Assembly: GCA_030749235.1 (NCBI GenBank)
Contig: JASMKM010000013.1
Span: 41,717-105,716 of the forward strand
Direction of reading: 5' to 3'
DNA from: Planctomycetota bacterium
GTDB lineage: Bacteria; Planctomycetota; UBA1135
Length of the DNA: 64,000 nt
Shown here: piece after piece, positions 18,809 through 53,783 of the stretch
How the letters are laid out: every line of letters starts with the position of its first letter
How positions within the stretch are numbered: position 1 is the first letter of the stretch
Position numbers and translations under genes: made by a program
The notes under the pieces: generated by a model
What the model saw: the letters and a program-made list of their open reading frames with translations, nothing else
Databases searched by the model: none
Told to the model about the DNA's origin: nothing

Positions 18809-20866
18809 ATGGGTCTACCTATGTCGGAATACGGTTTCATCAACCGGCTGCATGATTTCTTCACCAGCCGTCGCTTTGTCTGGATCCTGACCATCGTTCT
18901 CGCGGTGTTCCTGGTCCTGTACATGCTGTTCGTCACGATTTTCTTCAACCCTTTTGAGGCGAAGCTCGACGACACGGCCACCATCGTGCCTTCCCAGGTC
19001 GATTACTTCGTGCGTTGGCGCGACGCTGGCAGCCAGTTCGGCGACTTCCCCGAGCCTGCGATTTGGGAGGATTTCGAGGACAGCAACGCCTACGCGGAGG
19101 TGGCGGAATCGGGAGCACTGATGGATATTGGTGCCTCCAGCGGCATCACCGGGGTGCTGAACGAGATTGGCAAGGTCAGTGATTACCTGCCGGTGGGTCT
19201 TAGCCTCAAGGACGACTTCCTCAGCGAGATTGCCATCGCCGGCAATGGTGAGCTGCGTTTCGACGACCGTTTCGAAGGCATGGTCATGATGCGCGCCTCC
19301 TTCAAGGTGAAGGCCGGGGTCTCGATGATGGGTTTCGGCTTCGTGCGCGACAAGCTTCCCGAGGACATTCAGATTGAGGACGTCGGCGACGACGTCTATC
19401 GCCTGCCGCAGTTTGAACCATTCGGCTTTCAGGATGCTTACTTAGGTCGGGTAAAAGATGTGGTAATTCTCTCGAGCCGCCAGGAGTTCCTCACGCTTGC
19501 GCAGGACCTGGACAGTCGTGGCGGCCAGGATTCGCTCGCCAGGGCGTCGAATTTCCATGACAACGTCAGCGCACACCTCGGCCCGAATGAGATCCCGATC
19601 GAGATGTTCTTCCGCTGGGACAAGATTGGTCCACAGGCCGGGCGCTGGCCCGACCCGAATAGTGAAGGCCTCGCGTCCCGTTTCCTCGGACGCTTTTTCG
19701 ACACGCAGATGCTGCGCTTTCTGTCCGGCTACCTGGATCTCGATACGCATATGAAGCTGCGGTTGAGTGGCGATATCGACGCCAGCCTAGGTGCTGATTT
19801 CCAGAAGGCATGGCTACAGGGACCGGCGCTTGGGTCGAATCGCATCAAGGAGTTCGCCTCGATGGCGCCGGCACAGGCCTTTGCATTCATGGCGCTGGCA
19901 GGCGATCCCGGCGACGTGCTGGTGCAGTCCTACGATTTGGTGGCCGGCGACTTGCGCCGTAGCCTGGATCGCGCGGTTGCCGATAGCGGTCAGTATCAGA
20001 GCATGCTGCAGCTGCTGCAGGATATTGGCAAGATCTACAAGCCAGGGCTGGCAATGGTCCTACGCAACAACAATATCAATACCCTGGATACCGAGTCCGC
20101 ACCGAAGCACGACGGTACTCCGGTGCCGTTGTTCGCGATCGTCGGCAATGTCGATGACCCGGCCGCATTGGACCGCGTGCAGAATTTCTTCGAGGTCAAC
20201 TGGGCAGCGTTCACCGGCAACCAAGGCGACGAGACGATCCAGCGATTGAGCAACATCGGTGGTGCAGAGGGACTCAGTTTCGTGAGCACCGTAATCCCCG
20301 GCACTGGCGAAATCGCGCTGTTACATCTGCGCACCCTGGATACCCTAGTGTTGACCAACTCCGGCAACTTCGCCTACGAGATCCTCACCGTGGCCTTCCT
20401 CGATCCGAAGAACTCACGCAACAAGAATTCGATTCTCGCCCTTCAGGAGAGTTTCGAAAAGGCCTTGAACACCAACAAGAACGGAGCCCACGCATTTGCC
20501 TGGATAGATCCGGGTAATGGTCGTGAGTACTTCGAGGAAAGCTCCATCGGTGCAGCCGAGGATGCCTTCCGTCTCGAGCGCGAGAGCGTTTGGCGCGCTC
20601 TGCGTCCGCAGGAGGAAGCACGTTTGCGACAGGAGATGTTCCCCGGCCAGACGTCCTTGTCCGGCACTCAAGAGAACGCTTTGCAGGCTGCGGTCGATGA
20701 GGCCTTGTTAGCTGCCGATACCGGTGCCGACAGGCGACTTCCGGAGCTGACCGCAGCAGCGCGTAGCTCCTGGTTACCTTCGCAGTTGATGGACTGGTTC
20801 TCGATAGGCTTCCGGGTCAAACGGCGTCACGCAGAACTGATGATCCAAGGCGAGATTGCCGATTAG
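18809..20866 (+). CDS. Hypothetical membrane-anchored protein (N-terminal TM helix, large extracytoplasmic domain)
   Basis: 685-aa ORF with one N-terminal TM segment (FVWILTIVLAVFLVLYMLFVTIFF). No catalytic motif recognised. Confidence 0.7.
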   Translation: MGLPMSEYGFINRLHDFFTSRRFVWILTIVLAVFLVLYMLFVTIFFNPFEAKLDDTATIVPSQVDYFVRWRDAGSQFGDFPEPAIWEDFEDSNAYAEVAESGALMDIGASSGITGVLNEIGKVSDYLPVGLSLKDDFLSEIAIAGNGELRFDDRFEGMVMMRASFKVKAGVSMMGFGFVRDKLPEDIQIEDVGDDVYRLPQFEPFGFQDAYLGRVKDVVILSSRQEFLTLAQDLDSRGGQDSLARASNFHDNVSAHLGPNEIPIEMFFRWDKIGPQAGRWPDPNSEGLASRFLGRFFDTQMLRFLSGYLDLDTHMKLRLSGDIDASLGADFQKAWLQGPALGSNRIKEFASMAPAQAFAFMALAGDPGDVLVQSYDLVAGDLRRSLDRAVADSGQYQSMLQLLQDIGKIYKPGLAMVLRNNNINTLDTESAPKHDGTPVPLFAIVGNVDDPAALDRVQNFFEVNWAAFTGNQGDETIQRLSNIGGAEGLSFVSTVIPGTGEIALLHLRTLDTLVLTNSGNFAYEILTVAFLDPKNSRNKNSILALQESFEKALNTNKNGAHAFAWIDPGNGREYFEESSIGAAEDAFRLERESVWRALRPQEEARLRQEMFPGQTSLSGTQENALQAAVDEALLAADTGADRRLPELTAAARSSWLPSQLMDWFSIGFRVKRRHAELMIQGEIAD

Positions 20867-20923: not shown

Positions 20924-21012
20924 GCCGGGATGGCGGAATTGGCAGACGCGCATGGTTGAGGGCCATGTTGGGATAATACCCAGTGCAGGTTCGACCCCTG
21001 TTCCCGGCACCA
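20924..21012 (+). tRNA. tRNA-Leu (anticodon GAG), type II with long variable arm, CCA encoded
   Basis: Acceptor GCCGGGA pairs with TCCCGGC. Anticodon stem CATGG/CCATG with loop TTGAGGG (anticodon GAG). Long variable arm TTGGGATAATACCCAGT. T-loop GGTTCGACC. Discriminator A at 21009 followed by CCA. Confidence 0.9.
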
Positions 21013-30492: not shown

Positions 30493-31782
30493 TTAGTTGA
30501 TGCTCACGGTGACCGTGTTGGAGTTGTAGATGTCCGTGCCATCCACAATCTGCATTTCGACGTAGGCAGTGCGGCCAGCACCACGGCTAGGAATGAGCTT
30601 GTTGTAGGAGCCGATTCCAGACGAGGTGGTAGCACCCGTACCGACAATACCGTTCCAGGTAGTGAAGAGAGGGCTGCCATCAGTGAAGGAGTAGACGATG
30701 GTGTACGACTTGTTCGCAGGAGCACCGGTCCAGCTGAGGGTAACCAGCTGACCTGGGTTTGGCGTGGAGTCGCTGATGGTCATCGCGATGGTGTCGTTCG
30801 CCAAGCCGCCGCCGTTGCCACCGAATGGGTGACTCTCGGACAGGCTGCTGCCGCCAGAAGCGTTGGACTGAACGTGGATCGCACCACCTTCCCAACCACC
30901 GGTAGGCAGGGTCATGTTAATGACAGTGCCACCGCTGCTAGAAGCAAGGCCATTAACCTTCACCATTTCGCCACCAGAGTTGGAGCCGTTGAGAGTGTTG
31001 CTCTGCAGCCACAGGGTGTTGCCCGTGGAGGAGAAGTTCGTACCGGTGATGGTGATGTTGCCGCCAAGGGTCATGTTGCCGGTGATATTCGTGATGGAGG
31101 GCATCGAGGCACTGCGGGTGCCGTAGATGAATTTCACACCATTGCTGTCATCGGAAGCGATTGAACGGTTTGCATTACCGGTACCAATCGCGTAGGCGTA
31201 CATGGTGGCCGAGCTGCTGCTCGAGTGACCGAGACCCAACGCGTGGCCGAGCTCATGACAACCAATACCTTGAATGTCCTGACCACTGCCCACGTTGTTT
31301 GGGCCGTCCTGCCAGTTCCACGCGTCGCCGTAGAAGCGGATGCGCCAACCGTTGCTAATCGGGGTCTCGCAGTAGGCGAGGACACCACCCGAAGAGCCGC
31401 CGAGGGAGGAGATGATGTTGTCATTTCCGCCACCGACGCCACTGGCGTTACCGTTCCAAACGAAGCTGAAGTTGGCGCCGCCGGAGCCGACGGTGCTTTG
31501 GGAGGAGTCACCCGTACCGTCACCGTGAGCGCGCGAGCCCCACTCTGCACCACCTTTCCACAGCGCGAGTTCTGCGCCATCGTAGTCAGGCCAGTTCGGG
31601 TGGATGGTGTTGTTGTTGTTGGCGCTGGAGCCGTTGAAGTTGTTGAACACGCGGAAATCGCGCTGTGCCAAACCGAGGCTACCACCGATGGTGCTGTAAC
31701 CCTCAGCTTCCTGCGGAGCGACAACCATGGCGGAGCCGACTAGCAAGGAGCTACCGATTGCGAGACGTAGGACGTTTTTCAT
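30493..31782 (-). CDS. Secreted matrixin-type (M10-like) zinc metalloprotease with C-terminal Ig-like domains
   Basis: Signal peptide, then HELGHALGLGHS (HExxHxxGxxH followed by Ser, the matrixin signature) and Met-turn ATMYA. The C-terminal half has repeated beta-rich Ig-like segments (ITITGTNFS, VTLSWTG). No PRCGxPD cysteine-switch propeptide is visible. Confidence 0.85.
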   Translation of the reverse strand: MKNVLRLAIGSSLLVGSAMVVAPQEAEGYSTIGGSLGLAQRDFRVFNNFNGSSANNNNTIHPNWPDYDGAELALWKGGAEWGSRAHGDGTGDSSQSTVGSGGANFSFVWNGNASGVGGGNDNIISSLGGSSGGVLAYCETPISNGWRIRFYGDAWNWQDGPNNVGSGQDIQGIGCHELGHALGLGHSSSSSATMYAYAIGTGNANRSIASDDSNGVKFIYGTRSASMPSITNITGNMTLGGNITITGTNFSSTGNTLWLQSNTLNGSNSGGEMVKVNGLASSSGGTVINMTLPTGGWEGGAIHVQSNASGGSSLSESHPFGGNGGGLANDTIAMTISDSTPNPGQLVTLSWTGAPANKSYTIVYSFTDGSPLFTTWNGIVGTGATTSSGIGSYNKLIPSRGAGRTAYVEMQIVDGTDIYNSNTVTVSIN

Positions 31783-32315: not shown

Positions 32316-32601
32316 CAGTAGGGAGTTACTAGGGAATCGGGTTGTGTTCAGAGCCAACAGCTAGGCTCCGTCACTATGAGGGACACGTGACGAACCGCTC
32401 AGGTTCCCCCAAATTCACGTTTCTGGGCCTTCTGCGGTTCCTTGGAGGGGTGGAGGATGCTTATTTGTACCAGACAAAACGCCCAATTAATGCGGATTTC
32501 TAGCTGGAGCCATATTTTCAACCCGTATTTCGGCATGGGTTCTGGTGCCTCTGAGCAAGATTTCTACGCCAACGGGCAAATTTTCGTGGCAGAATAGGAG
32601 C

Positions 32602-34407
32602 ATGCAACGTTTGTTGATTCCCCTCGCCTGCGCAGCTGGTCTCGGTATCGGTCTGCTCACACGTGCTGACGCCGGATCCGCGGCCATCGAATTGGGTCCT
32701 TCCCATGTCGAGATCCTGCCCTTTGGCCTTCTTGACGAAGTGCGCCGCGCCGACTTGGTCGTCCCCATGCAAGTTCAGCTCTACAACTCTGGTTCCGCTG
32801 GCGTGGAACTCGTGGACCTGGTCATCCAGACTCCAGAGGGTGAGCTCATTGGCTCCCGCACCTTGGATGATCGCGCGCTTGCCGGAGACCATGGTTTCCT
32901 GAACGACCTTTACCTGGAGATGGAGCGCACCGACCCGGATTTCAGTCACCGTCACACGAAGCGCCTGTTCATTCCGCTCGAGGAATACGAGCCGCTCGGT
33001 CCTGAGGGCGAAGCAGAAGCCATGCGCCGGGTGCTGCAAGGAGTCTCGGAACTGAAGCAGAGCGGCGCGCCGCAAATTTACGACGCCCAGTTCGAAGTCG
33101 ACTTGGCGGCCCTGTTCGGCCCGGAGCCCCAAGTAGGAGATGTCGCGCCTTTCGAGATTATCGTGACTTGGTTCGATGGCACGAATCGCCAGAGCAATAA
33201 CTTGTCGCGCACAATCACCATTTTGGCGCCGTTTCGCCCAGCGCCTCCTGGACATTGGAGCTACAACCGTGGCGTCGGCAGTTGGATGACCGGCGACCTG
33301 CATGTGCACAACTGCCGTGACGAGGCGATCAATGGCTGTGACTCCTGTGCAGCTGAGTCGGTCAACATCACTGGTTCCTTTACCAACGCGCAGCTGAAAC
33401 CGCAGTTCCAGGCCCTGGGCTTTGACTTCTTCAGCTCCACCACCCACAGCTACTGCATCAACAGCGATGCCGAGTTCAATGCTGTGGTTGCCGAGGCCGC
33501 AGCCTTGACCGACCCGAGCTTCGTGATGCTCGCCAGCACTGAGGTCTCAGGTCGTGAGACTGGGGTGCAGTCGGGCAGTGATAGTTCCACCGCATTGTGC
33601 CTGCTCGGCTTCTCCGGCAATGAAGTGCACCACATGGGTGCGCACCACATCACCTCGCGTAAACCAGGCGGCCGTCAGGGCTTCTTGGATTTCTGCGACG
33701 ATCCGCTGTATAGCCAAGCCGTCAATTACAACGACGTCAACAGTGAAGGCGGTTTCGCTGTGATTAACCACCCAGCGTCGAGCATGTGGGGCTTCAACAG
33801 TCTTGCCGACCTCACTGGCCAAGAGCGCAACAACGCTTGGGGTGTGGAAGTCTGGAACGGCTCTGAAGGCGCCAACAACTTCCAGACCTTCCATCGCAAC
33901 TGGTGGGTGGCACGCATGGTGGGTGGAAAGCTGCTCTACCCTTACTCTGGCAGCGATACTCACGATTCAGCATATAACTTTGGCGCCACGCATACCTACG
34001 TGAACGGTCCACTGAATGGCGATTCGGTCAACGAGGCCCTCAAGTCCGGCATGAACTACTTGTCGAACGGTCCTTTCCTCGACATCAGCATCAGTGATAA
34101 CGGTGGTCGCGGCTTGGGCATGGGTGAAGTCTTTAGTGTGCGCGGCAGTTTGGTTCCGAACAACTACCCAATCACCATCTCGGTGCCTTACAACGTCGAC
34201 CAGAACGGCTCGACCATCGATATCTATCGTGGTGTAGTTGGCGTCGGCGAGGTGCTGGTCTCGTCGCAGAGCGGCATCACCGGCAGTGGCACCTTGACCG
34301 TGCCCGACACCCTGCCACAAAGCACCTGTTGGTATCGTGCCGAGGTACGCAACACCATCCTTACGGAATCCGCGTTGACCACGCCGGTGTTCGTTCACAT
34401 GTTCTAG
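32602..34407 (+). CDS. Secreted PHP-domain metallohydrolase (CehA/McbA-like)
   Basis: Start at ATG 32602 (MQRLLIPLACAAGLGIG signal). His-rich PHP-type motifs GDLHVHNC, STTHSYC, NEVHHMGAHH and GSDTHD. Confidence 0.65.
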   Translation: MQRLLIPLACAAGLGIGLLTRADAGSAAIELGPSHVEILPFGLLDEVRRADLVVPMQVQLYNSGSAGVELVDLVIQTPEGELIGSRTLDDRALAGDHGFLNDLYLEMERTDPDFSHRHTKRLFIPLEEYEPLGPEGEAEAMRRVLQGVSELKQSGAPQIYDAQFEVDLAALFGPEPQVGDVAPFEIIVTWFDGTNRQSNNLSRTITILAPFRPAPPGHWSYNRGVGSWMTGDLHVHNCRDEAINGCDSCAAESVNITGSFTNAQLKPQFQALGFDFFSSTTHSYCINSDAEFNAVVAEAAALTDPSFVMLASTEVSGRETGVQSGSDSSTALCLLGFSGNEVHHMGAHHITSRKPGGRQGFLDFCDDPLYSQAVNYNDVNSEGGFAVINHPASSMWGFNSLADLTGQERNNAWGVEVWNGSEGANNFQTFHRNWWVARMVGGKLLYPYSGSDTHDSAYNFGATHTYVNGPLNGDSVNEALKSGMNYLSNGPFLDISISDNGGRGLGMGEVFSVRGSLVPNNYPITISVPYNVDQNGSTIDIYRGVVGVGEVLVSSQSGITGSGTLTVPDTLPQSTCWYRAEVRNTILTESALTTPVFVHMF

Positions 34408-45361: not shown

Positions 45362-45384
45362 TTCCTCGGAGCCTCCCTGGACGC

Positions 45385-47715
45385 TCAATAGAGTTCCACT
45401 TCGGCGAAACCGACACTGGCATTCCGTCCGGGTTGTCCTTGGCTCACGGAGATCACGCGTAGCTTGATCCTCTTGACCGAGATTTCCTCCTCGAATTCCA
45501 TCACAGCCTTCTCCTGGAGATAGGTCGGCATGCGCAGCATCTTCGGCGGAAGGTCATTGATCGTCACCTCGACAATTTGCGGCGCCGGGGACCGATGAAC
45601 ACCACGGAAGTCGAATGGAGCCATCACCAACTTCAACACCGACGCCTTGCGTTTACGTCGGAAGGTAATCTCGGCTTGTGGTTGGCTGTCCTTGGCTTGG
45701 CAGCGCCACGAGGTGGCGTAGAGGCCGTCGGTGAGAAATTGTGCGACGTTCGCTCCAGCATTTGTGGAGACCTCGACACTCGGTGAGCCTGAAGGCACCA
45801 GGTTCCCTTCGCCTTCGGTGACATAGGCCAAACGTTCGGCGGAGATGCCTTCGGTCTGACGGAAGTCGATGATGCCGGATTTGAGCATTCGACCGTTGTT
45901 CAGCTGCGCGTCGGCCCGGATCTTCCAATCGCCACGCTGCGCGAAGTCATGCTGAATCGCGAAGCGGTTCTCGAACATTTCTTCTATCCGTATCCACGGC
46001 GAGTCAGGTGCTTGCAACCAATAGACCACGCGCGCGATCTCGTCAAAGTTTTCGGTCTGGCTGTCAATCCAAAGGGAGTTCGGTTGGTTCAATGACACAC
46101 GAAGCAACAAGGGACCTTCATCGGGCACAGACTGCAGGGAGCGATCATTATGTAGGTTCACGCTGGTCAACGCATGACGCGAGGTTGCTTTACGCAGGAA
46201 CAGCAAGGCGAAGGATTCAATCAACGGTGAGGCATCGTTATCCCAGCAGCCGCTCCCTTTCTGCTCGTCGACGATATGTTCGGCGCCTTCGAGATACCAG
46301 GAGCGACTTCCGAACATGTCGCGGTCGGTCAATCCACCTGCACGTTCGAGTCCGTAAAGGTAGTAGTAACTGGACATGCCTACTGTCATGCCTTCGTGCC
46401 AACCCCAGTTCTGGTCCAACCAGCGGATACCACTCTCGACTGAAGCCTGTGCACGCGTGACCAGCTTGTCCCTTTCGCTACGTTTCAGGTTGGCGATGCA
46501 GATCGCCAAGGTACCGATACCCGCTGCCGTCATCGACGGCGAACCCTTGTCTGAGTGACTCCTGTAGCCGAAGCCATAGGCGGAACGACTGCTTGCCTTG
46601 TTGCCCCCGTCTTCGCGACAGGCAAGGACGGCACGCGTCAAGCTTTCCCAGGTTGATTGTGGCACGTCGATGCCGGCCTTCACCGCGGCACGTAAACCCA
46701 ATGCCGCATATTGGGTATTGGACAGGTCGCCGTCAGTGGCACCAACTCCCAAGCCATAGGTCCACATGCCGTTGCCTGCCTGTCCACGAATCAGACGCCT
46801 GGCGATTTCCTCCATGCGCCCCTGATCTTGCGCATCGCCACCGGCCTCGAAGGCCATCAATTCCAGGGCTGCGGAGTAGGTTCCTTCAGCCCGATTCCGA
46901 TTACGTAACCGCGCCAACCCCTTCAATACCGCTTCACTGCGGATGGACTGCCCACTATGGATCAAGGTGTAGATTGCTAGCGCGTCGGTGCCATTCGGAT
47001 AGCCTCCATAGGGAGGCCAGGAACCATCGATTAACTGCGAATCGAGCAGGTGTTGTACACCGAGGTCGACCGCAAAATTAATGCGCCGCACGTCAATGTG
47101 ACGGCGACTGCGCATCTCGAACTGCCAGCTCTCGGATTCATCGACCACCTCAATCAGGAGGTGATTCAAGCCTGGTTGCAGGTCGAGGGTGAAGGAAGCA
47201 CTTTTGGCATCGAGGTGGTCAAAGGCCTTGCGTCGGAAGATGAAACGGCCGTTCCACCAAAGGCTGAGTCGCCCGGCTGCGCCGAAGGTCACGTCGGTAG
47301 TGGACTCGGCATTGGCATAGACCGGGCGATACAAGTAGGTCGCGCGCTTGCTGCCCGGAAGGCCAGGGATCAAGCTACGGAAGTCGATGATGCCGCTATC
47401 CAGACCGGCCTGTATGCGCGGATTGACGAGGTCCTGATCCTGCGAGATCCGCATGCTTTCCAGGTTGAGCGGCATCCAGTCAAGTTCGCTGCTGTCGGTG
47501 CCGGCGTAACTCTCACGCAAGCCTAGCCAGGGTTGGCCGGCTTCCATGTGCTTGACGTTACCGAGCAAGGCCCTGGCTCCCTTGCTGTTGCGGCTTTGCA
47601 ATGGACCGAGCATCTTCCATGCACCTGGGCGCAGGTGGTCCACAATCTCATCCACGCTCTGTTGCGGCGGCGCCCACGCGGAGCCGGCGAGCAGGAAAAA
47701 TGAAACCAGGAGCAT
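45385..47715 (-). CDS. Secreted multidomain protein A: N-terminal beta-sandwich, prenyltransferase/squalene-cyclase-like alpha/alpha toroid repeats, C-terminal discoidin-like domain
   Basis: Start at ATG 47715 (MLLVSFFLLAGSAWA). Repeats QLIDGSWP, GNGMWTYG, NTQYAALGLRAA and GSGCWDND. The C-terminus ...WRCQAKD...ASVGFAEVELY is paralogous to 51232-53601. Confidence 0.8.
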   Translation of the reverse strand: MLLVSFFLLAGSAWAPPQQSVDEIVDHLRPGAWKMLGPLQSRNSKGARALLGNVKHMEAGQPWLGLRESYAGTDSSELDWMPLNLESMRISQDQDLVNPRIQAGLDSGIIDFRSLIPGLPGSKRATYLYRPVYANAESTTDVTFGAAGRLSLWWNGRFIFRRKAFDHLDAKSASFTLDLQPGLNHLLIEVVDESESWQFEMRSRRHIDVRRINFAVDLGVQHLLDSQLIDGSWPPYGGYPNGTDALAIYTLIHSGQSIRSEAVLKGLARLRNRNRAEGTYSAALELMAFEAGGDAQDQGRMEEIARRLIRGQAGNGMWTYGLGVGATDGDLSNTQYAALGLRAAVKAGIDVPQSTWESLTRAVLACREDGGNKASSRSAYGFGYRSHSDKGSPSMTAAGIGTLAICIANLKRSERDKLVTRAQASVESGIRWLDQNWGWHEGMTVGMSSYYYLYGLERAGGLTDRDMFGSRSWYLEGAEHIVDEQKGSGCWDNDASPLIESFALLFLRKATSRHALTSVNLHNDRSLQSVPDEGPLLLRVSLNQPNSLWIDSQTENFDEIARVVYWLQAPDSPWIRIEEMFENRFAIQHDFAQRGDWKIRADAQLNNGRMLKSGIIDFRQTEGISAERLAYVTEGEGNLVPSGSPSVEVSTNAGANVAQFLTDGLYATSWRCQAKDSQPQAEITFRRKRKASVLKLVMAPFDFRGVHRSPAPQIVEVTINDLPPKMLRMPTYLQEKAVMEFEEEISVKRIKLRVISVSQGQPGRNASVGFAEVELY

Positions 47716-47752
47716 GCTTCCATCTAGGCTAACGTAGCGGCAACGGTAACTT

Positions 47753-50700
47753 GTGAATTCAGTGCGCACCCCCTCCACCCCCTTCCAAAGCACATGGCGC
47801 CTCGTCCTTGGCGTCCTGGTCGTCTTCGGCTGCACTACGACGGCCGTCACCGGCCAATCCAAAGACAAGCAGGAAACGACTCAGGAGCATGTCAGCATCG
47901 AGTACGGGCGCAAGGCGATGGCCGCCGGCGACCACTCCCAGGCCTATGGTCACTTCTTGTTCGGACTGGCGCGCACCACCAGTCCTTTTGAGGTCGTGCA
48001 ACTGCTGCTCGAGAACTCCGCCCTCGCTGCCGATGCCGACGCCAGCGCCTTGTGGGCGCACGATTTCTACGCGCTTGGCGGCGACATCCGCGGTCGCATG
48101 AAGTTGAAGCCAGGCGTTTCGAAGTTATTACCGGAAGACGATGACTTCCCTTCGTCCTTGTCGGTGTCACGCGCCGAGGCCGTGCGTGAGTTGATGAAGT
48201 TCCGCGATGCGCGTGCGCGTAGTAAGCGCATCGGCGATCCTTTGTTGGCGGAGTGGGCGGAAGACCTTGCGCGCCAACTAGCCCTGGAGTCACCAGCCCT
48301 GCAGGCCGAATACGCGACCAAGTTGGATCCCAGCCTTGCGGTGAACCGTAAGGTGCAACGTCAGGTCACGCGTGGTCTAGAGAAGTTGATCCGCAACGGT
48401 TTCGGCGGTGGTGGCAACGATCAGGTAATTCGTGCAGCACGTTGCCTGCGCGGACTTGGCGCGCAGGCCAACTTCAAGGATCTGGAAGGTCCCGAACCAC
48501 CGAACATGAGTGGCGAGCTGTCGACGGCGTCGGCGGCTTTAGCACGTGCACGCCAAGCGATGGCAAACAGCGGCGTGAAGGTGTGGAGCATCGAGGAGCT
48601 GGAGGATCTCGATGAGGACCAACAGCGCGCCTTCACCTTGGAGCATGGTTCCTTCGCCAACCCCGGTGTTGCGCTTTCGCCGAACGGCTGGTACCTGATC
48701 GAAACCAACTGCGGTTACTGGACCTTGCTCGGCGCGGCACAGACCGTCGAGGAACATCACAAACGCCTGGTCAATTGGTACGGAGTGGATCCCTTTATCG
48801 GCATCCAAGGCATCGTGCGTCTGGTCCCGGAATCTTACGGCCTGGAGATGGAGGGTTCGCCTTTCTGGTGGGCTGGTGGTTTCCAAGGCGGCAACGTCAC
48901 CACCCTGAAGTTCACTATCAGCACGATTCCGGCCTTGGGTCGCGGACTGACGCACGAGCTCACGCACCGCTTCGATGGCGGTGCCTTCGGTGGCTTGCCG
49001 GCATGGCTGAGTGAAGGGCGTGCGGTTTGGACTGGCGGCAGCTATGGATCAATCTACGATAAGGATTTCATCGAGGATTACGTCAACTACGGCACGCTGT
49101 TCGGCGTCTACAACGATGGCTATGGCGAGCAGGAGAACCTTGAAGAGCTCATCGACGGCAGCATCGAGGAGTATCGCGATAACTATTCGGCGGGCTACGC
49201 CCTGTTCGTCTTTTTGCGCTCGTGGACTGGTTTCCTCGAGGAACCATACGAGGACGAGAATGGCAAGGAGCATGTCTACCACGACGAAGACAACGCAGTG
49301 CCGATCTTCGCTGAGCAGCTGGAGAAGTTCATGGCCGATCGCAATCGCGCTCGCGGTGGAGCGGTCGCGGGCTTCGCCAAGTACTTCGCCGACGGCAAGG
49401 ATGGTCGCCCAGCGGATATGGAGACCTTCGCGCGCGATTACAAGCGCTTCCTGCGCGGTTTCTATTGGAAGGACTTCGAGCCGTGGGTGGAACTCTATGA
49501 TCCGCGCGCGCCAGCTAGCCCCGACGACAACCGTCGCGTTTACGATGAGCCCACCTTCACTTGGTTGCGCAATCGTGCGGAACCATGGTTCGGCCAGGAT
49601 CAAGCGCGCGTCGCTGCGGAGCTGTTCTCCGAAGTGGGATCGATCGATGATGCCGTCGCCGCCTACCGTTGGTGCTTGGCGGTGGACGAACCTAGTGATG
49701 CCACCTTGGAGCAATTGGTTGCCGACCTGCAAAGCCGGAAGTTGGCGAACGCCGCTTGGGTGATGCAGAAGTGGCAACGCTTCAGTTCGCCCTTGCGTGA
49801 TTATGAAGGCAGCCTGCTCGGCCCCGCACCCTTCTTGGAAAAGCTACCACGTTTGCGTGCCCTGTTGGAAAACCGCGCCGCCGCCGCCAAGGACTATGAG
49901 GGTCGCGGTTGGCATCATGCTGCTGCAGCCATGGCTGCCGACCACGATCTACTCGCTACGGCGGTCGGCGTGGAGTTGTTGGATTATGCGCGCCCCGAAG
50001 GAGAGTTCCTTCATCCTTATACGCGGCCTGGCCGTCACCTCAGTCTTGGCGGTTGGAGTGAGAGTGGCCTGACCGGCCTAGAGGACAACCGCATCGAAGG
50101 CAACTGGTTCGTCGATTACCAAGACGACGTGCACGTCGGCCGCAAGACCGCACGTTCCGGCACCGACACCATGGACCGCGATGCGCGCGGTAGCGATGCC
50201 TTCGTGCATTCGCTTGAATGGCAGGACCCGGGTCGATACCAACTGACCGCTAAGATCGAGCAGACCACCGAGTACTACAGTGCCGGTGTCACCCTCGGTT
50301 GGACGCGCCGCGACCGCAACATTCGCTTCAGCTTCACCGGCGGCGATTACCGTTTCGCCACCAAGCAATCCGAGGAGCGCGAGGATGGCTACGGTTTCGG
50401 TTGGAACCTGAACGGGCTTTACGCGCGACAAGGGGCCAAGAGCGGTAGCGTGGGTTTCGACCGCCGCAAAACCACCTGGGACCTGCGCATGTTGGTCGAT
50501 GGCCCGACGGTGGAGGTCTTCGTCGATGACAAGTACATTGCTTCGTTGACCACCCTCGACGCCCGGCCGATTCAGGGTTACATCGGCTTCTTCACCTCGA
50601 CCGGCACGATGCGCGTGATTCAACCGCAAGTCACCCGCCTGGATCGCGAACTGTTCGGTCCGACTGCGACCAGTTCCGGCCGAGGTCTGCACCCTTCGCG

Positions 50701-51235
50701 CAAGGGTGCCAATCGCATGCGCGATTTCATTGGACGACCTGTCACCGGCCTGCCGCTGGCTGGCGCGGGTACGGCCATCCTGTGGATTCCAGGCGAGAGC
50801 GAGAAGCATCGATTGGAGATGGAGGAGGGCGAATGGCGCGAATCCGTACAGAAGACCGTCTCGACCTTTCTTGCGAGCTGGGTGGTGGAGGATCCGAGCC
50901 AAGGCATCACCGTGGTCCTACCGGAAAGCATGGCCGCCACCGACCGCGCTGCCCTGCGCGACTACTTCGCCGAGACGCCTAAGGACGAGGAGTTCGTCTT
51001 GCCACGCGGCGGGCTTCGTTGGGCGGATCACAGTTCCGATCTCGACATTACCGAACGCGGCATGACAGTCGGCGGTTGGATCCGTCCGTTGCTCGGTTTC
51101 GCCGACCCGGCTGGCATCATGCGTTATCACGCGCGCATGTCGCGTTTACGAGTGTCCTTGCCGAAGGAACTGCGCAACTTGCTGCGCGAATACCAGGATC
51201 ATTCACGTCCTGGCCAGGCTGGGGCTGGCGACTAA
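47753..51235 (+). CDS. Large lipoprotein B with a Peptidase_MA-like (HExxH...E) domain and a C-terminal concanavalin/DUF1080-like domain
   Basis: GTG start gives ...WRLVLGVLVVFGC (lipobox-like). Zinc motif HELTHRF followed by PAWLSEGRAVW. The C-terminal region has beta-sandwich features (WDLRMLVDGPTVEVFVDDKYI, GYIGFFTSTGTMRV). Confidence 0.8.
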   Translation: MNSVRTPSTPFQSTWRLVLGVLVVFGCTTTAVTGQSKDKQETTQEHVSIEYGRKAMAAGDHSQAYGHFLFGLARTTSPFEVVQLLLENSALAADADASALWAHDFYALGGDIRGRMKLKPGVSKLLPEDDDFPSSLSVSRAEAVRELMKFRDARARSKRIGDPLLAEWAEDLARQLALESPALQAEYATKLDPSLAVNRKVQRQVTRGLEKLIRNGFGGGGNDQVIRAARCLRGLGAQANFKDLEGPEPPNMSGELSTASAALARARQAMANSGVKVWSIEELEDLDEDQQRAFTLEHGSFANPGVALSPNGWYLIETNCGYWTLLGAAQTVEEHHKRLVNWYGVDPFIGIQGIVRLVPESYGLEMEGSPFWWAGGFQGGNVTTLKFTISTIPALGRGLTHELTHRFDGGAFGGLPAWLSEGRAVWTGGSYGSIYDKDFIEDYVNYGTLFGVYNDGYGEQENLEELIDGSIEEYRDNYSAGYALFVFLRSWTGFLEEPYEDENGKEHVYHDEDNAVPIFAEQLEKFMADRNRARGGAVAGFAKYFADGKDGRPADMETFARDYKRFLRGFYWKDFEPWVELYDPRAPASPDDNRRVYDEPTFTWLRNRAEPWFGQDQARVAAELFSEVGSIDDAVAAYRWCLAVDEPSDATLEQLVADLQSRKLANAAWVMQKWQRFSSPLRDYEGSLLGPAPFLEKLPRLRALLENRAAAAKDYEGRGWHHAAAAMAADHDLLATAVGVELLDYARPEGEFLHPYTRPGRHLSLGGWSESGLTGLEDNRIEGNWFVDYQDDVHVGRKTARSGTDTMDRDARGSDAFVHSLEWQDPGRYQLTAKIEQTTEYYSAGVTLGWTRRDRNIRFSFTGGDYRFATKQSEEREDGYGFGWNLNGLYARQGAKSGSVGFDRRKTTWDLRMLVDGPTVEVFVDDKYIASLTTLDARPIQGYIGFFTSTGTMRVIQPQVTRLDRELFGPTATSSGRGLHPSRKGANRMRDFIGRPVTGLPLAGAGTAILWIPGESEKHRLEMEEGEWRESVQKTVSTFLASWVVEDPSQGITVVLPESMAATDRAALRDYFAETPKDEEFVLPRGGLRWADHSSDLDITERGMTVGGWIRPLLGFADPAGIMRYHARMSRLRVSLPKELRNLLREYQDHSRPGQAGAGD

Positions 51236-53601
51236 TGCAGCTCAATCTCGCTGAAGCCGACCGAGGCAGCGCCTAGCTTTCCGCCGGTGACCTCGATGAT
51301 TCGCACCTTGAGAAAGTTAACCTTTGTCTTGGGGGGCAGGTCGATCACCGTCTTGTGGAACGGATCAGGATTGATGTCGTAGACCGTCGGCTCCTTGTCG
51401 TTGTTCAACCACAACTCGATCTTGGTTGCGCGTGGATTATTGGTCTGGTCCCAAGCGCACGTCAACGCGTGCGAGAACAGGATGCGGCTGGCCTTGGCGC
51501 GACGCTTCAACTTGATTTCGAGCCACGGGTCAGCATCGCCCGCCTCGCACCGCCAACGCGTTTTCCATTCATTGTCGACCAGGAAGTTGCCACCTTCGCT
51601 GCTCAGGTTGGACGAGATCGAGATCTTCGGACGGTAGGCGGGCAGAATGTTGCGCATCGAATCGCTGGCGTAGGACAAGGTCTTCGGGTCCACGCCGAAC
51701 TTCAACTCAAATCGCACGGTACCCGACTCGTTGGTCGCACCGCCCTCGAAGTGTCCGACGCAGCGCACCTCATATGTCCCGCTCTTGGTGGTGGGGAATT
51801 GCTTGGCGTAGCGGTTCTCGGTAGAAGTGCCGATCGAATCCCATTCCTCGCCGACCTCGCGCACAAAATACTCCACCGCATCCGGCAGCCGGTTCTCGGG
51901 CGGGGTCACCCACATCGTCATCGGGCTCGAAGCCAATACATGCAGCTTTAGCTCGCCATCTTCAGGTAGGGAGAAATGCAGCTCATTTTTCTTCTTGTTG
52001 ACGACGCTACCGCCGGTGGTGGCCCTTGCCGATGCCTTCTTCAGGAATAGTAGGGAGAAACTAGTGGAGGTGCATTTGCGCCCACCCCATGGGTCGACCC
52101 ATTGGCCCTTGTTGCCTTGCTTCGAGATCAATTGCAAAGCACCTTTCTGATACCAATCATGGTCGCCGATGGTGCTGATCTTGAGGTAGCTACCGACGCG
52201 CTCCACTCCGTACAGCCAATAGTAGACCCAGTTGTAACTCTTATTGGGGTTACTCTTGACCACAAACTCGCGCGCCATCCAAGCCATGCCTTGAGAGATA
52301 GCGCGATCGATCCTGATGCGGTACTTCTTCTGGATGTTTTCGCCAAGCTGTTCGCGCGCGACCGCCAAGACGGTTAGGCCGGCGGTGGTCATCGAGCCAG
52401 TAATGCCGGTGCTGTGGCCTTGATAGTACGCGAAACCCGCCGGCACGATGGTTGCGGAGCGCTTGACCTTCTCTTGAGCGAGCATGGCTCCGTCGACTGC
52501 GTCGTACCAAACCTTGGCGGGAATCTCCACACCAGCTTCGGCAGCGGCACGTAACCCCATCACCGCGAACTGGGTGCAAGACATGTCGGCGTGGCCGCCC
52601 GGGTAGGCCCATTGGCCATTGTTCTCTTGCCAGGAGATTAGGTCCTCGGCGCGCTCCTCGATCCATTCCAGGTAGTCGGGATCGTTGAGAGCGGCCAACG
52701 CCATCAACTCGCAAGACGCCGAATAGGTCATGTCGGAAGGCACGCAACTGATGTACTCGAGACCGCGCAGAATCGCTGGATGCTTCGGGGAGATACCCGA
52801 ACTTAGTAAGGCATATAGCGCGAGCGCAGTCGAGCCGTTGCGGTAGCGCCCGCGTTCTTGGCCCCAAGAGCCATCAATCAGCTGCAGGCTAAGCAGATGT
52901 TCGACACCACGGTCGACAGCATTGTTGATCTTGGCTTGTTCGACACCACGTGGTGCCTGCATCTCGAACGCCCATGCGCCGCCCGCATTGGTCACCTTGA
53001 CCAATAAGTGGTTCAGGCCTTCCTGCAGCTTCAAGGTCAGTTGGTCATCGAAAGGGCTAATGCCACGGGCAACCCCCTTGGCGAAGACCTGTTCACCGTT
53101 CAGCCACATCACGCAGCCATCGTCACTGCCGAACATGATCGGCACCTGGAGTTCTTTGGTGGCTGTCAACGGTAAGTAGAGATAAGCCGCTGTCTTGCCT
53201 GTCTTGCCACATAATCCCCACAAGTCGAACTTGCCGCTATCTACGGCGGTCTTGCCGCGCGGGTTTGTGCCTTGAACCTTCTTCCACACCAAGGCGCCGT
53301 CGTCATTTTGAAAGTCACGCTCCAAGCCAGGCCAAGTCTTACCAACCTTCATCTTCTTGATGAAGTCTTCGGGACCATGCTTGCTGCCAATTGCGTGACC
53401 TTCCGGGTGGTCGAAGGCGCCGACCAACATCCAATCACCAGCGGTCACTTCTTCCTGCATCGAAACAGCAGGTGACGCGAACAGCGTAAATGCTGCAGCG
53501 CAGATCAGCAGTGCGAAGACGGGCCGAGGAGGGTGGGGTCTCAGGGGCAAGTCTTTAGAGTAGCAACGAATCCGCGTTTTTTGAGGCATCATTGCAGCCA
53601 T
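51232..53601 (-). CDS. Secreted multidomain protein C, paralog of protein A (beta-sandwich + alpha/alpha toroid repeats + discoidin-like domain)
   Basis: Collinear with A (LNHLLVKV/LNHLLIEV; QLIDGSWG/QLIDGSWP; CTQFAVMGLRAA/NTQYAALGLRAA; ASVGFSEIELH/ASVGFAEVELY). Start probably 53601-53589 (MAAMMPQK). Confidence 0.8.
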   Translation of the reverse strand: MAAMMPQKTRIRCYSKDLPLRPHPPRPVFALLICAAAFTLFASPAVSMQEEVTAGDWMLVGAFDHPEGHAIGSKHGPEDFIKKMKVGKTWPGLERDFQNDDGALVWKKVQGTNPRGKTAVDSGKFDLWGLCGKTGKTAAYLYLPLTATKELQVPIMFGSDDGCVMWLNGEQVFAKGVARGISPFDDQLTLKLQEGLNHLLVKVTNAGGAWAFEMQAPRGVEQAKINNAVDRGVEHLLSLQLIDGSWGQERGRYRNGSTALALYALLSSGISPKHPAILRGLEYISCVPSDMTYSASCELMALAALNDPDYLEWIEERAEDLISWQENNGQWAYPGGHADMSCTQFAVMGLRAAAEAGVEIPAKVWYDAVDGAMLAQEKVKRSATIVPAGFAYYQGHSTGITGSMTTAGLTVLAVAREQLGENIQKKYRIRIDRAISQGMAWMAREFVVKSNPNKSYNWVYYWLYGVERVGSYLKISTIGDHDWYQKGALQLISKQGNKGQWVDPWGGRKCTSTSFSLLFLKKASARATTGGSVVNKKKNELHFSLPEDGELKLHVLASSPMTMWVTPPENRLPDAVEYFVREVGEEWDSIGTSTENRYAKQFPTTKSGTYEVRCVGHFEGGATNESGTVRFELKFGVDPKTLSYASDSMRNILPAYRPKISISSNLSSEGGNFLVDNEWKTRWRCEAGDADPWLEIKLKRRAKASRILFSHALTCAWDQTNNPRATKIELWLNNDKEPTVYDINPDPFHKTVIDLPPKTKVNFLKVRIIEVTGGKLGAASVGFSEIELH

Positions 53602-53783
53602 GCTTCTCACCCAGAACCGATTTCGCCACTGCGCAGGTCGATGACCTGTAGCCATACGCTAGCATCGGAAAGCCATGCACGAGCCTGCAAGACGGCAGCT
53701 GCTTAACCCTGAGTATCGTTGTCGACCGTAATACGCCCACTTTTTTTGAGGGGGCGAAAGGTCAACGACACCAAATGGAAGAC

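Follow-up and report, generated by a model that had tools for sequence, protein, structure and literature searches.

Two paralogous exported toroid proteins flank a gluzincin-like protein in an uncultured Planctomycetota lineage: a possible shared role in glycoconjugate processing

Why should two related exported proteins be encoded on either side of a putative metallopeptidase? The question is raised by three adjacent genes in a 64,000-nucleotide stretch of a Planctomycetota genome (GenBank assembly GCA_030749235.1, contig JASMKM010000013.1, positions 41,717 to 105,716). We call the whole stretch that was analyzed the window, use its coordinates throughout, and refer to the left, middle, and right genes as A, B, and C. 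A first-pass annotation, made from the letters of the sequence, had described a three-gene module in which the paralogs A and C bracket a Peptidase_MA-like lipoprotein, B. The three open reading frames (ORFs) lie where that annotation had placed them, with products of 776, 1,160, and 789 amino acids (aa) (about 790 had been given for C):

45385-47715, minus strand: gene A, 776 aa from the likely ATG at 47715 (maximal ORF 45385-47868)
47716-47752: spacer between the divergent genes A and B, 37 bp, or 46 bp with GTG 47762 as the start of B
47753-51235, plus strand: gene B, an ORF of 1,160 aa
51232-51235: overlap of the B and C stop codons (B TAA at 51233-51235; C TAG, minus strand, at 51232-51234)
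51232-53601, minus strand: gene C, about 789 aa from M19 at 53601 (maximal ORF 51232-53655)

A and C lie on the minus strand and B on the plus strand, with A divergent from B and C convergent with it. An N-terminal extension of ORF A beyond 47715 would run into B. The NCBI entry for B (P0001) has 1,157 aa and is identical, starting three codons downstream at GTG 47762. As read from the sequence, the stops of B and C share 2 nucleotides.

The proteins are Sec exported and multidomain, and they are restricted to a single uncultured Planctomycetota lineage, to which the metagenome-assembled genome (MAG) UBA1135 belongs. The reading toward which we lean, tentatively, is that A, B, and C all take part in the processing of a glycoconjugate, either within the periplasm or on the cell surface. 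All three would target the same glycan-decorated substrate: with its glycan or ligand part recognized or held by A and C, B would cleave the peptide part. The shared role would explain why B and C have long stood as a convergent pair and why paralog A was recruited later to the far side of B.

Part of the evidence for this reading is the neighborhood of B in other genomes. We compared B loci from six assemblies and from 80 of the 256 species genomes carrying a B relative. A/C-type genes were located by tblastn, and a locus entered a denominator when its flank on the side in question was 2.5 kb or longer. Ordered by B identity, the neighborhoods were as follows:

B identity of at least 55%: convergent C-type gene adjacent in 7 of 7 loci; divergent A-type gene adjacent in 6 of 7
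B identity of 48 to 55%: convergent C-type gene adjacent in 4 of 8, with one more 2.1 kb off; divergent A-type gene adjacent in 5 of 7
B identity of 42 to 48%: convergent C-type gene adjacent in 8 of 15, with one more 4.7 kb off; divergent A-type gene adjacent in 0 of 18
B identity below 42%: convergent C-type gene adjacent in 2 of 45; divergent A-type gene adjacent in 0 of 40

Of the 75 loci that could be evaluated, 21 had B and C side by side, and these fall mainly within the clade whose B identity is 42% or higher. The full A-B-C order was seen at B identities of at least 55%, and the B-C pair continued to about 40%. At B identities of about 49% or more, 11 of the 14 loci that could be evaluated had an A-type ortholog divergent from B. 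Orientations of A, B, and C were constant in every orthologous locus where the genes were present, and where the distance from B to its convergent C-type neighbor was measured, it was 3 to 94 bp. The first-pass annotation had proposed conservation of the A-B-C neighborhood as a check on its module; the neighborhood held at B identities of at least 55% and failed in distant homologs.

The B-C pair was found in two unrelated flanking contexts and was the sole pair common to both. The first runs PriA, HEAT-VWA, B, C, Bax1-I, SSF, and GH3, and the second M1 peptidase, B, C, FG-GAP, and GFO_IDH. C-type genes beside B were the closest relatives of C (36 to 48% identity). One B-C locus came from MAG UBA1135, a genome that has been placed in a group with the Saltatorellota/OM190 cluster, itself a proposed one (bioRxiv 10.1101/817700).

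The main rival explanation is that the three genes are neighbors by descent only. B would then be an independent exported metallopeptidase, A and C would be independent glycan-binding proteins or enzymes, and their order would be synteny left over in a core region that is compact and rearranges slowly. We consider this quite possible, if on balance doubtful. Several observations favor it and weigh against a shared role. Because the strands differ, co-transcription is excluded: A, B, and C are separately transcribed and form neither an operon nor a single cotranscribed module. Most B homologs with less than 42% identity have no adjacent partner, and about 60 homologs (44% identity or less) had no A/C-type gene within 10 kb. 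In three loci (L005, L013, and L015), A was kept and C was not. A/C-family genes also exist without B: two of the three more distant family members sampled (those two at 31 to 34% identity to C) had no B nearby, and some MAGs carry the B and A/C families at unlinked positions (e.g., IT454_06290 and IT454_01105). Locus L004 tolerates 4.7 kb of inserted DNA separating B from C. The overlap of the B and C stops is nothing special, since the next convergent pair, a beta-eliminating-lyase gene and A, is separated by just 23 bp (45362-45384), and tight spacing is a property of this genome.

The surroundings point the same way. They are core chromosomal genes (ClpB, GroEL, RNase D, CobW, PriA, FTHFS, HEAT-VWA, Bax1-I, SSF transporter, GH3, and MltA) with an even GC content of about 0.59, and several of the housekeeping neighbors (PriA, FTHFS, GroEL, ClpB, and MltA) remain syntenic at the same divergence. 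The synteny counts are confounded by shared ancestry; adjacency follows phylogeny and may be mere inheritance. Descent alone accounts less readily for the survival of B-C as the only pair in both flanking contexts, for the presence, in one subclade, of a second paralog on the far side of B, and for the closeness to C of the B-adjacent C-type genes, unlike the two unlinked members sampled.

The junctions were also inspected for regulatory signals. A promoter scan found no sigma-70-like site in the 37-bp A-B spacer, a terminator scan found no terminator between B and C, and nothing promoter- or terminator-like appeared at either junction. Because the starts of A and B are only 37 bp apart, the promoter or 5' untranslated region of either gene must overlap, or lie within, the start region of the other. 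We had considered the B/C stop overlap as a mark of antisense regulation and dropped it as special, given the equally tight lyase/A pair.

Some details of the related loci deserve mention. In L004 (13597-18260; same contig as L031), four genes separate B from its convergent C-type gene: a 112-aa ORF, two glycosyltransferase genes (GT4 and GT2), and an ORF of 640 aa. In the second flanking context, an M1 aminopeptidase gene lies upstream of B; it adjoins B in L001 (6821-9995) and is one or two small genes away in L088 (11044-14236) and L004 (7476-9182). An AhpC/thioredoxin-domain gene adjoins the M1 gene in L001 and L088, and FG-GAP/UnbV_ASPIC genes are near in L001 and L004. On the 3.8-Mb contig of L087 (8001-13834), two tandem A/C-family paralogs lie on the same strand with a phosphatase-like small gene between them and no B near.

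Proteins A and C align from end to end (31% identity, E = 2e-109 by BLASTP) and are full-length paralogs, as had been proposed. Judged by sequence, A is not a recent duplicate of C, because none of C's top 120 relatives is nearer to A. Sec-type signals with cleavage near A-x-A/Q (the slash marks the site) are conserved in the family; the hydrophobic N terminus of A reads MLLVSFFLLAGSAWA and is followed by PP. The AlphaFold2 (AF2) model of C (predicted local distance difference test [pLDDT], 88.4; predicted template modeling score [pTM], 0.80) comprises four domains, listed here in model numbering (ORF numbering minus 19). The limits in A are approximate, having been transferred by alignment to C:

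52957-53448, minus strand: C, PA14-like beta-sandwich (model residues 51-214, AF2)
52042-52938, minus strand: C, single alpha/alpha toroid (model residues 221-519, AF2)
51703-51981, minus strand: C, immunoglobulin (Ig)-like sandwich (model residues 540-632, AF2)
51238-51627, minus strand: C, CBM32/discoidin-like jelly roll (model residues 658-787, AF2)
47104-47625, minus strand: A, PA14-like domain (by alignment to C)
46189-47091, minus strand: A, alpha/alpha toroid (by alignment to C)
45844-46128, minus strand: A, Ig-like domain (by alignment to C)
45388-45780, minus strand: A, CBM32/discoidin-like domain (by alignment to C)

A profile of the A/C family (alignment A2, 39 members) matched squalene-hopene cyclase in the PDB through several QW-type repeats (E = 5.7e-15) and CBM32 or F5/8-type C domains (E of about 3e-5). 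The motifs QLIDGSW, S[CN]TQ[YF]A, and ASVGF[AS]E[VI]EL[YH] are present in A and C. The signal peptide, N-terminal beta-sandwich, cyclase/prenyltransferase-type repeats, and discoidin-like end that the first-pass annotation had read from the letters were all borne out. Foldseek searches of the PDB with the C model also returned many CBM32 domains (including that of ZmpB) and factor VIII C and APC10 domains. Against the Pfam and NCBIfam models, A, B, and C produced subthreshold matches only, among them F5_F8_type_C in C (27.3 bits; cutoff, 28.2). By profile and by its modeled jelly roll, the C-terminal domain is a member of the discoidin/CBM32 group, and ligand binding is predicted. The assignment of the N-terminal domain to PA14 is tentative, because Pfam PA14 matched no window protein; the profile of this domain matched the RsgI3 PA14 dyad at an E value of 1.8e-5 and one PA14 protein at 0.15.

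We found 354 homologs of C. PF00754, PF13243, or PF13249 is recorded for many of them, and PF22633 is also on record. A and C thus combine known domain types in a previously undescribed way. On the favored reading of a shared role, they would be paralogous binding proteins, possibly enzymes, in which PA14-like and CBM32-like modules surround one toroid that lost, or never had, the catalytic motifs of cyclases, prenyltransferases, and thioester proteins.

A toroid of this kind has invited more specific proposals. One is that a system peculiar to the Planctomycetota cluster with UBA1135, acting in the envelope or outside the cell, is made up of B, C, and (in one subclade) A; thioester-less toroid proteins with PA14 and CBM32 modules would capture a glycoconjugate and pass it to a gluzincin family not classified before. 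We regard this as unlikely; if true, it would be a new use of the cyclase/thioester-domain fold as a protease partner. Less likely still is that A and C act as thioester-less counterparts of the alpha-2-macroglobulin thioester domain and trap, inhibit, chaperone, or present substrate to B. A and C do flank a protease gene, and their layout of beta-sandwich, toroid, and beta-sandwich loosely resembles the macroglobulin family. Foldseek retrieved complement C3b and C5 chains with the C model (E values of about 1e-7 to 5e-7), and the matches at 2e-7 to 5e-7 speak for this proposal; against it, their TM is only 0.2 to 0.26. Alpha-2-macroglobulin and complement C3/C4/C5 thioester domains share with A and C the toroid fold class flanked by beta-sandwiches, but the four-domain C model and its paralog have neither an array of MG domains nor a bait region nor a CGEQ thioester. 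The absence of CxEQ from A and C, noted in the first pass, was confirmed by a motif scan and extends to the whole family at the SCTQ site. The likeness to alpha-2-macroglobulin that had been drawn therefore holds for the fold class and not for the sequence: the family profile is nearer to terpene cyclase/prenyltransferase repeats (6e-15), and its search of the PDB returned no macroglobulin or complement sequence at an E value of 1 or less. B is also common without A or C.

In the 39-member alignment, the site flagged earlier reads D-L-S-x-T-Q-[YF]-A, with Cys in 17 members, Asn in 15, Leu in 5, and Thr in 2 at the variable position and with D and S invariant. The invariant residues of the toroid include a cluster of Y292, Y332, D338, S340, F389, Y391, E466, R467, and W482. 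A C-x-E-Q sequence does occur in 5 of the 39 A/C relatives, at one aligned toroid-helix position distinct from the SCTQ site (C model residue 414, about 52357-52368), where C has A-R-E-Q and A has C-I-A-N. This is probably a coincidence.

The shared-role reading takes B to be a peptidase. A homology search with B retrieved 280 proteins of about 1,100 to 1,200 aa, almost all of them without a name; those that have one are from Planctomycetota MAGs. A profile of the catalytic domain, searched against 1.84 billion cluster representatives, retrieved 183 proteins, and the 150 listed had the same architecture or were fragments. By these searches, the B family is closed and lineage restricted. The AF2 model of B (pLDDT, 86.7; pTM, 0.86) and an alignment of 40 homologs (A1; 36 to 78% identity to B) delimit the following parts:

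47882-48652, plus strand: B residues 44-300, helical tetratricopeptide repeat (TPR)-like domain, all-helical in AF2
48665-49597, plus strand: B residues 305-615, predicted catalytic domain (AF2 and invariant columns)
48953-48967, plus strand: B residues 401-405, HELTH, invariant in the 40 homologs
49013-49015, plus strand: B residue E421, putative third zinc ligand, invariant in the 40 homologs
49601-49966, plus strand: B residues 617-738, second helical domain (AF2; TPR-like PDB profile match at profile positions 585-683)
50105-50638, plus strand: B residues 785-962, concanavalin-like (lectin/glucanase fold) sandwich (AF2 and Foldseek)
50771-51193, plus strand: B residues 1007-1147, C-terminal alpha/beta domain (AF2), followed by the conserved tail QDHSRPGQAGAGD

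B would be a gluzincin-type zinc metallopeptidase whose catalytic domain lies between two helical, TPR-like domains. The full-length family profile matched designed TPR proteins in the PDB weakly, at an E value of 0.003 in the second helical domain and 0.03 to 0.1 in the first. The gluzincin motif reported in the first pass proved invariant in the 40 homologs, as HELTHRFDG from H401 and E421-G-x-A-x-W-T. H401, E402, H405, and E421 are joined by about 60 further strictly invariant residues of the catalytic domain, including WxGGFQGG (373-380) upstream and YRDxY (474-478) downstream of HELTH, and the long block DEPTxTWxRxRAEPxxG is likewise invariant. In the AF2 model, helix 392-411 carries HExxH, and E421 sits on the helix that comes next (417-429). 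This is the arrangement of gluzincins (MEROPS clan MA(E); nearest Pfam family, PF13485), with a helical HExxH and a Glu on the following helix, and E421 is the probable third zinc ligand.

The comparison with M1 peptidases gives a mixed picture. B shares with them a Gly-rich strand motif about 22 residues upstream (GGFQGG in B versus GxMEN in M1), a conserved Tyr about 70 residues downstream, as in other gluzincins, and helical domains adjoining the catalytic domain. It differs in its spacing of HExxH-x15-E (x18 in M1), in having no GxMEN, and in giving no Pfam M1 match in B or the 40 homologs. It also lacks the N-terminal beta-saddle and has additional lectin-like and alpha/beta domains.

The case against a peptidase is that B fails every curated threshold tested. 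The Pfam Peptidase_MA_2 model (PF13485) covers the HExxH stretch with 16 bits, below the gathering cutoff of 32.4, and 6 of the 40 homologs match it at E < 0.01 (best E, 2.9e-4); the Peptidase_MA label of the first pass thus survives as a subthreshold resemblance. NCBIfam gave no match for B, a profile search of the PDB found no sequence relative of B or of its catalytic domain alone, and hhalign of that domain against three Pfam-confirmed M1 peptidases encoded near B elsewhere gave a probability of 1.2%. Much of B, moreover, consists of noncatalytic domains. It could then be mainly a lectin or TPR scaffold, with HExxH in another hydrolytic role or a structural one. We judge this very unlikely in view of the strict invariance of H401, E402, H405, and E421 together with so many residues of the same domain and of the helix-helix geometry typical of gluzincins in the model. 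We would describe B as representing a new family that is gluzincin-like. Literature searches on Peptidase_MA_2 and on the lineage returned nothing on the A, B, or C proteins.

The sandwich of B is probably ligand binding. Foldseek related it to GH16 lichenases, CBM66, PL7, and ERGIC-53 (E values of 2e-5 to 4e-4; target-normalized TM of 0.45 to 0.63). The first pass had called it a C-terminal concanavalin/DUF1080-like sandwich; the fold was right, PF06439 (DUF1080) matched neither B nor the 40 homologs, and the sandwich is not C-terminal, being followed by an alpha/beta domain of about 150 aa. A motif scan found no GH16 ExDxxE in the sandwich. It contains unusually many invariant or nearly invariant Arg residues (R797, R801, R809, R852, R853, R855, R858, R892, and R962), and their number suggests an anionic ligand. 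From the sequences and models together, we infer proteolysis by B, binding of glycans or anionic polymers by A, C, and the B sandwich, the location of the three proteins, and their cooperation.

As to that location, the N termini of the B family are ordinary, conserved Sec signals ending in A-x-A/Q. The window protein has V-F-G-C, which the first pass had read as a lipobox (VVFGC). The Cys is missing in most homologs, and at the level of the family we rejected B as a lipoprotein. Periplasmic and extracellular locations are equally possible for A, B, and C.

The C-terminal part of B yielded a few further observations. In a profile search of the PDB, the alpha/beta domain matched only a thiol-peroxidase, nonsignificantly (E = 0.54), and a thioredoxin fold was accordingly discarded as unsupported. 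The tail that follows (residues 1148-1160; 51194-51232) is modeled with low confidence and conserved as QDH[SA]RPGxAGAx[DE]-COOH (loci L001 to L086 compared). It belongs to the clade with an adjacent C-type gene; other clades end in VFRNR or in FRDHGRPxRxLP plus an acidic extension. The tail could be a linear motif or partner-binding peptide or only a clade marker, since it covaries with C adjacency and both traits are clade specific. One B homolog (P0056, on the contig of L061) is annotated as a 1,422-aa fusion with a C-terminal VOC/glyoxalase and zinc ribbon (1207-1419), and a small glyoxalase gene lies directly upstream of B in another genome (L004, 9204-9554). The association may be a gene-calling artifact or a weak fusion link.

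That A and C are active terpene cyclases or prenyltransferases is hardly credible: their QW-type repeats match squalene-hopene cyclase, Foldseek pairs the C model with small cyclases of that kind (SHC-like) and MstE (8paj, 8pak, and 6sbg; target-normalized TM of 0.56 to 0.59), and some homologs are named "terpene cyclase/mutase family protein" or "prenyltransferase/squalene oxidase repeat" in NCBI, but a motif scan found no DxDD in A, in C, or in the toroid of any of the 39 family members, Cys occupies the D-x-S-C site in just 17 of them, the proteins are Sec exported with PA14 and CBM32 modules, and cyclase models score far below their cutoffs (22 bits against 26.2 for SQHop_cyclase_N with C; 26 bits against 323 for TIGR01787). 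With the squalene-hopene cyclase/prenyltransferase superfamily (SQHop_cyclase_N, SQHop_cyclase_C, and Prenyltrans), A and C have in common QxxDGSW-type repeats and the alpha/alpha toroid. They differ from it in having a single toroid and no beta-gamma didomain, no conserved Zn-ligand triad, and a fusion to PA14-like, Ig-like, and CBM32 domains. The database names of their relatives describe the repeats, not a demonstrated activity, and are probably misnomers.

Two known peptidases offer partial parallels. BepA (YfgC), of family M48, is a periplasmic zinc metallopeptidase with a TPR domain. Like B, it is an exported HExxH/Glu peptidase with a TPR-like domain, a likeness which suggests that the repeat domain selects substrates in the envelope. 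It differs in domain order and size and has no lectin-fold sandwich; no sequence relation to B turned up, although no comparison was aimed at BepA. ZmpB of Clostridium perfringens (M60-like), a peptidase directed at glycoproteins, brings a zinc peptidase together with CBM32/discoidin modules. Here, however, the CBM32 domains are on the separate, separately transcribed A and C and not on the peptidase, and no M60 sequence similarity was detected in B.

If the link between the genes is real, it would give a first function to two families widespread in an uncultured marine Planctomycetota lineage: an orphan gluzincin family for which neither a curated model nor a solved relative exists, and exported, probably misnamed "terpene cyclase/mutase" proteins. 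It would also mean that a noncatalytic, non-thioester alpha/alpha toroid is used outside the cytoplasm. Failing such a link, what is gained is a corrected domain annotation, evidence that the cyclase names are unreliable, and a new peptidase-like family fit for a Pfam or MEROPS entry. Specialists are unlikely to be surprised unless cooperation of A, B, and C is demonstrated.

Elsewhere in the window, no Rfam family matched at the gathering threshold. A Peptidase_M10 (matrixin-like) protein is encoded at 30493-31782 (minus strand), and two long ORFs have no Pfam match, one of 685 aa at 18809-20866 and one of 620 aa at 32545-34407 (both on the plus strand). The sole RNA gene detected is tRNA-Leu(GAG), at 20924-21012 on the plus strand.

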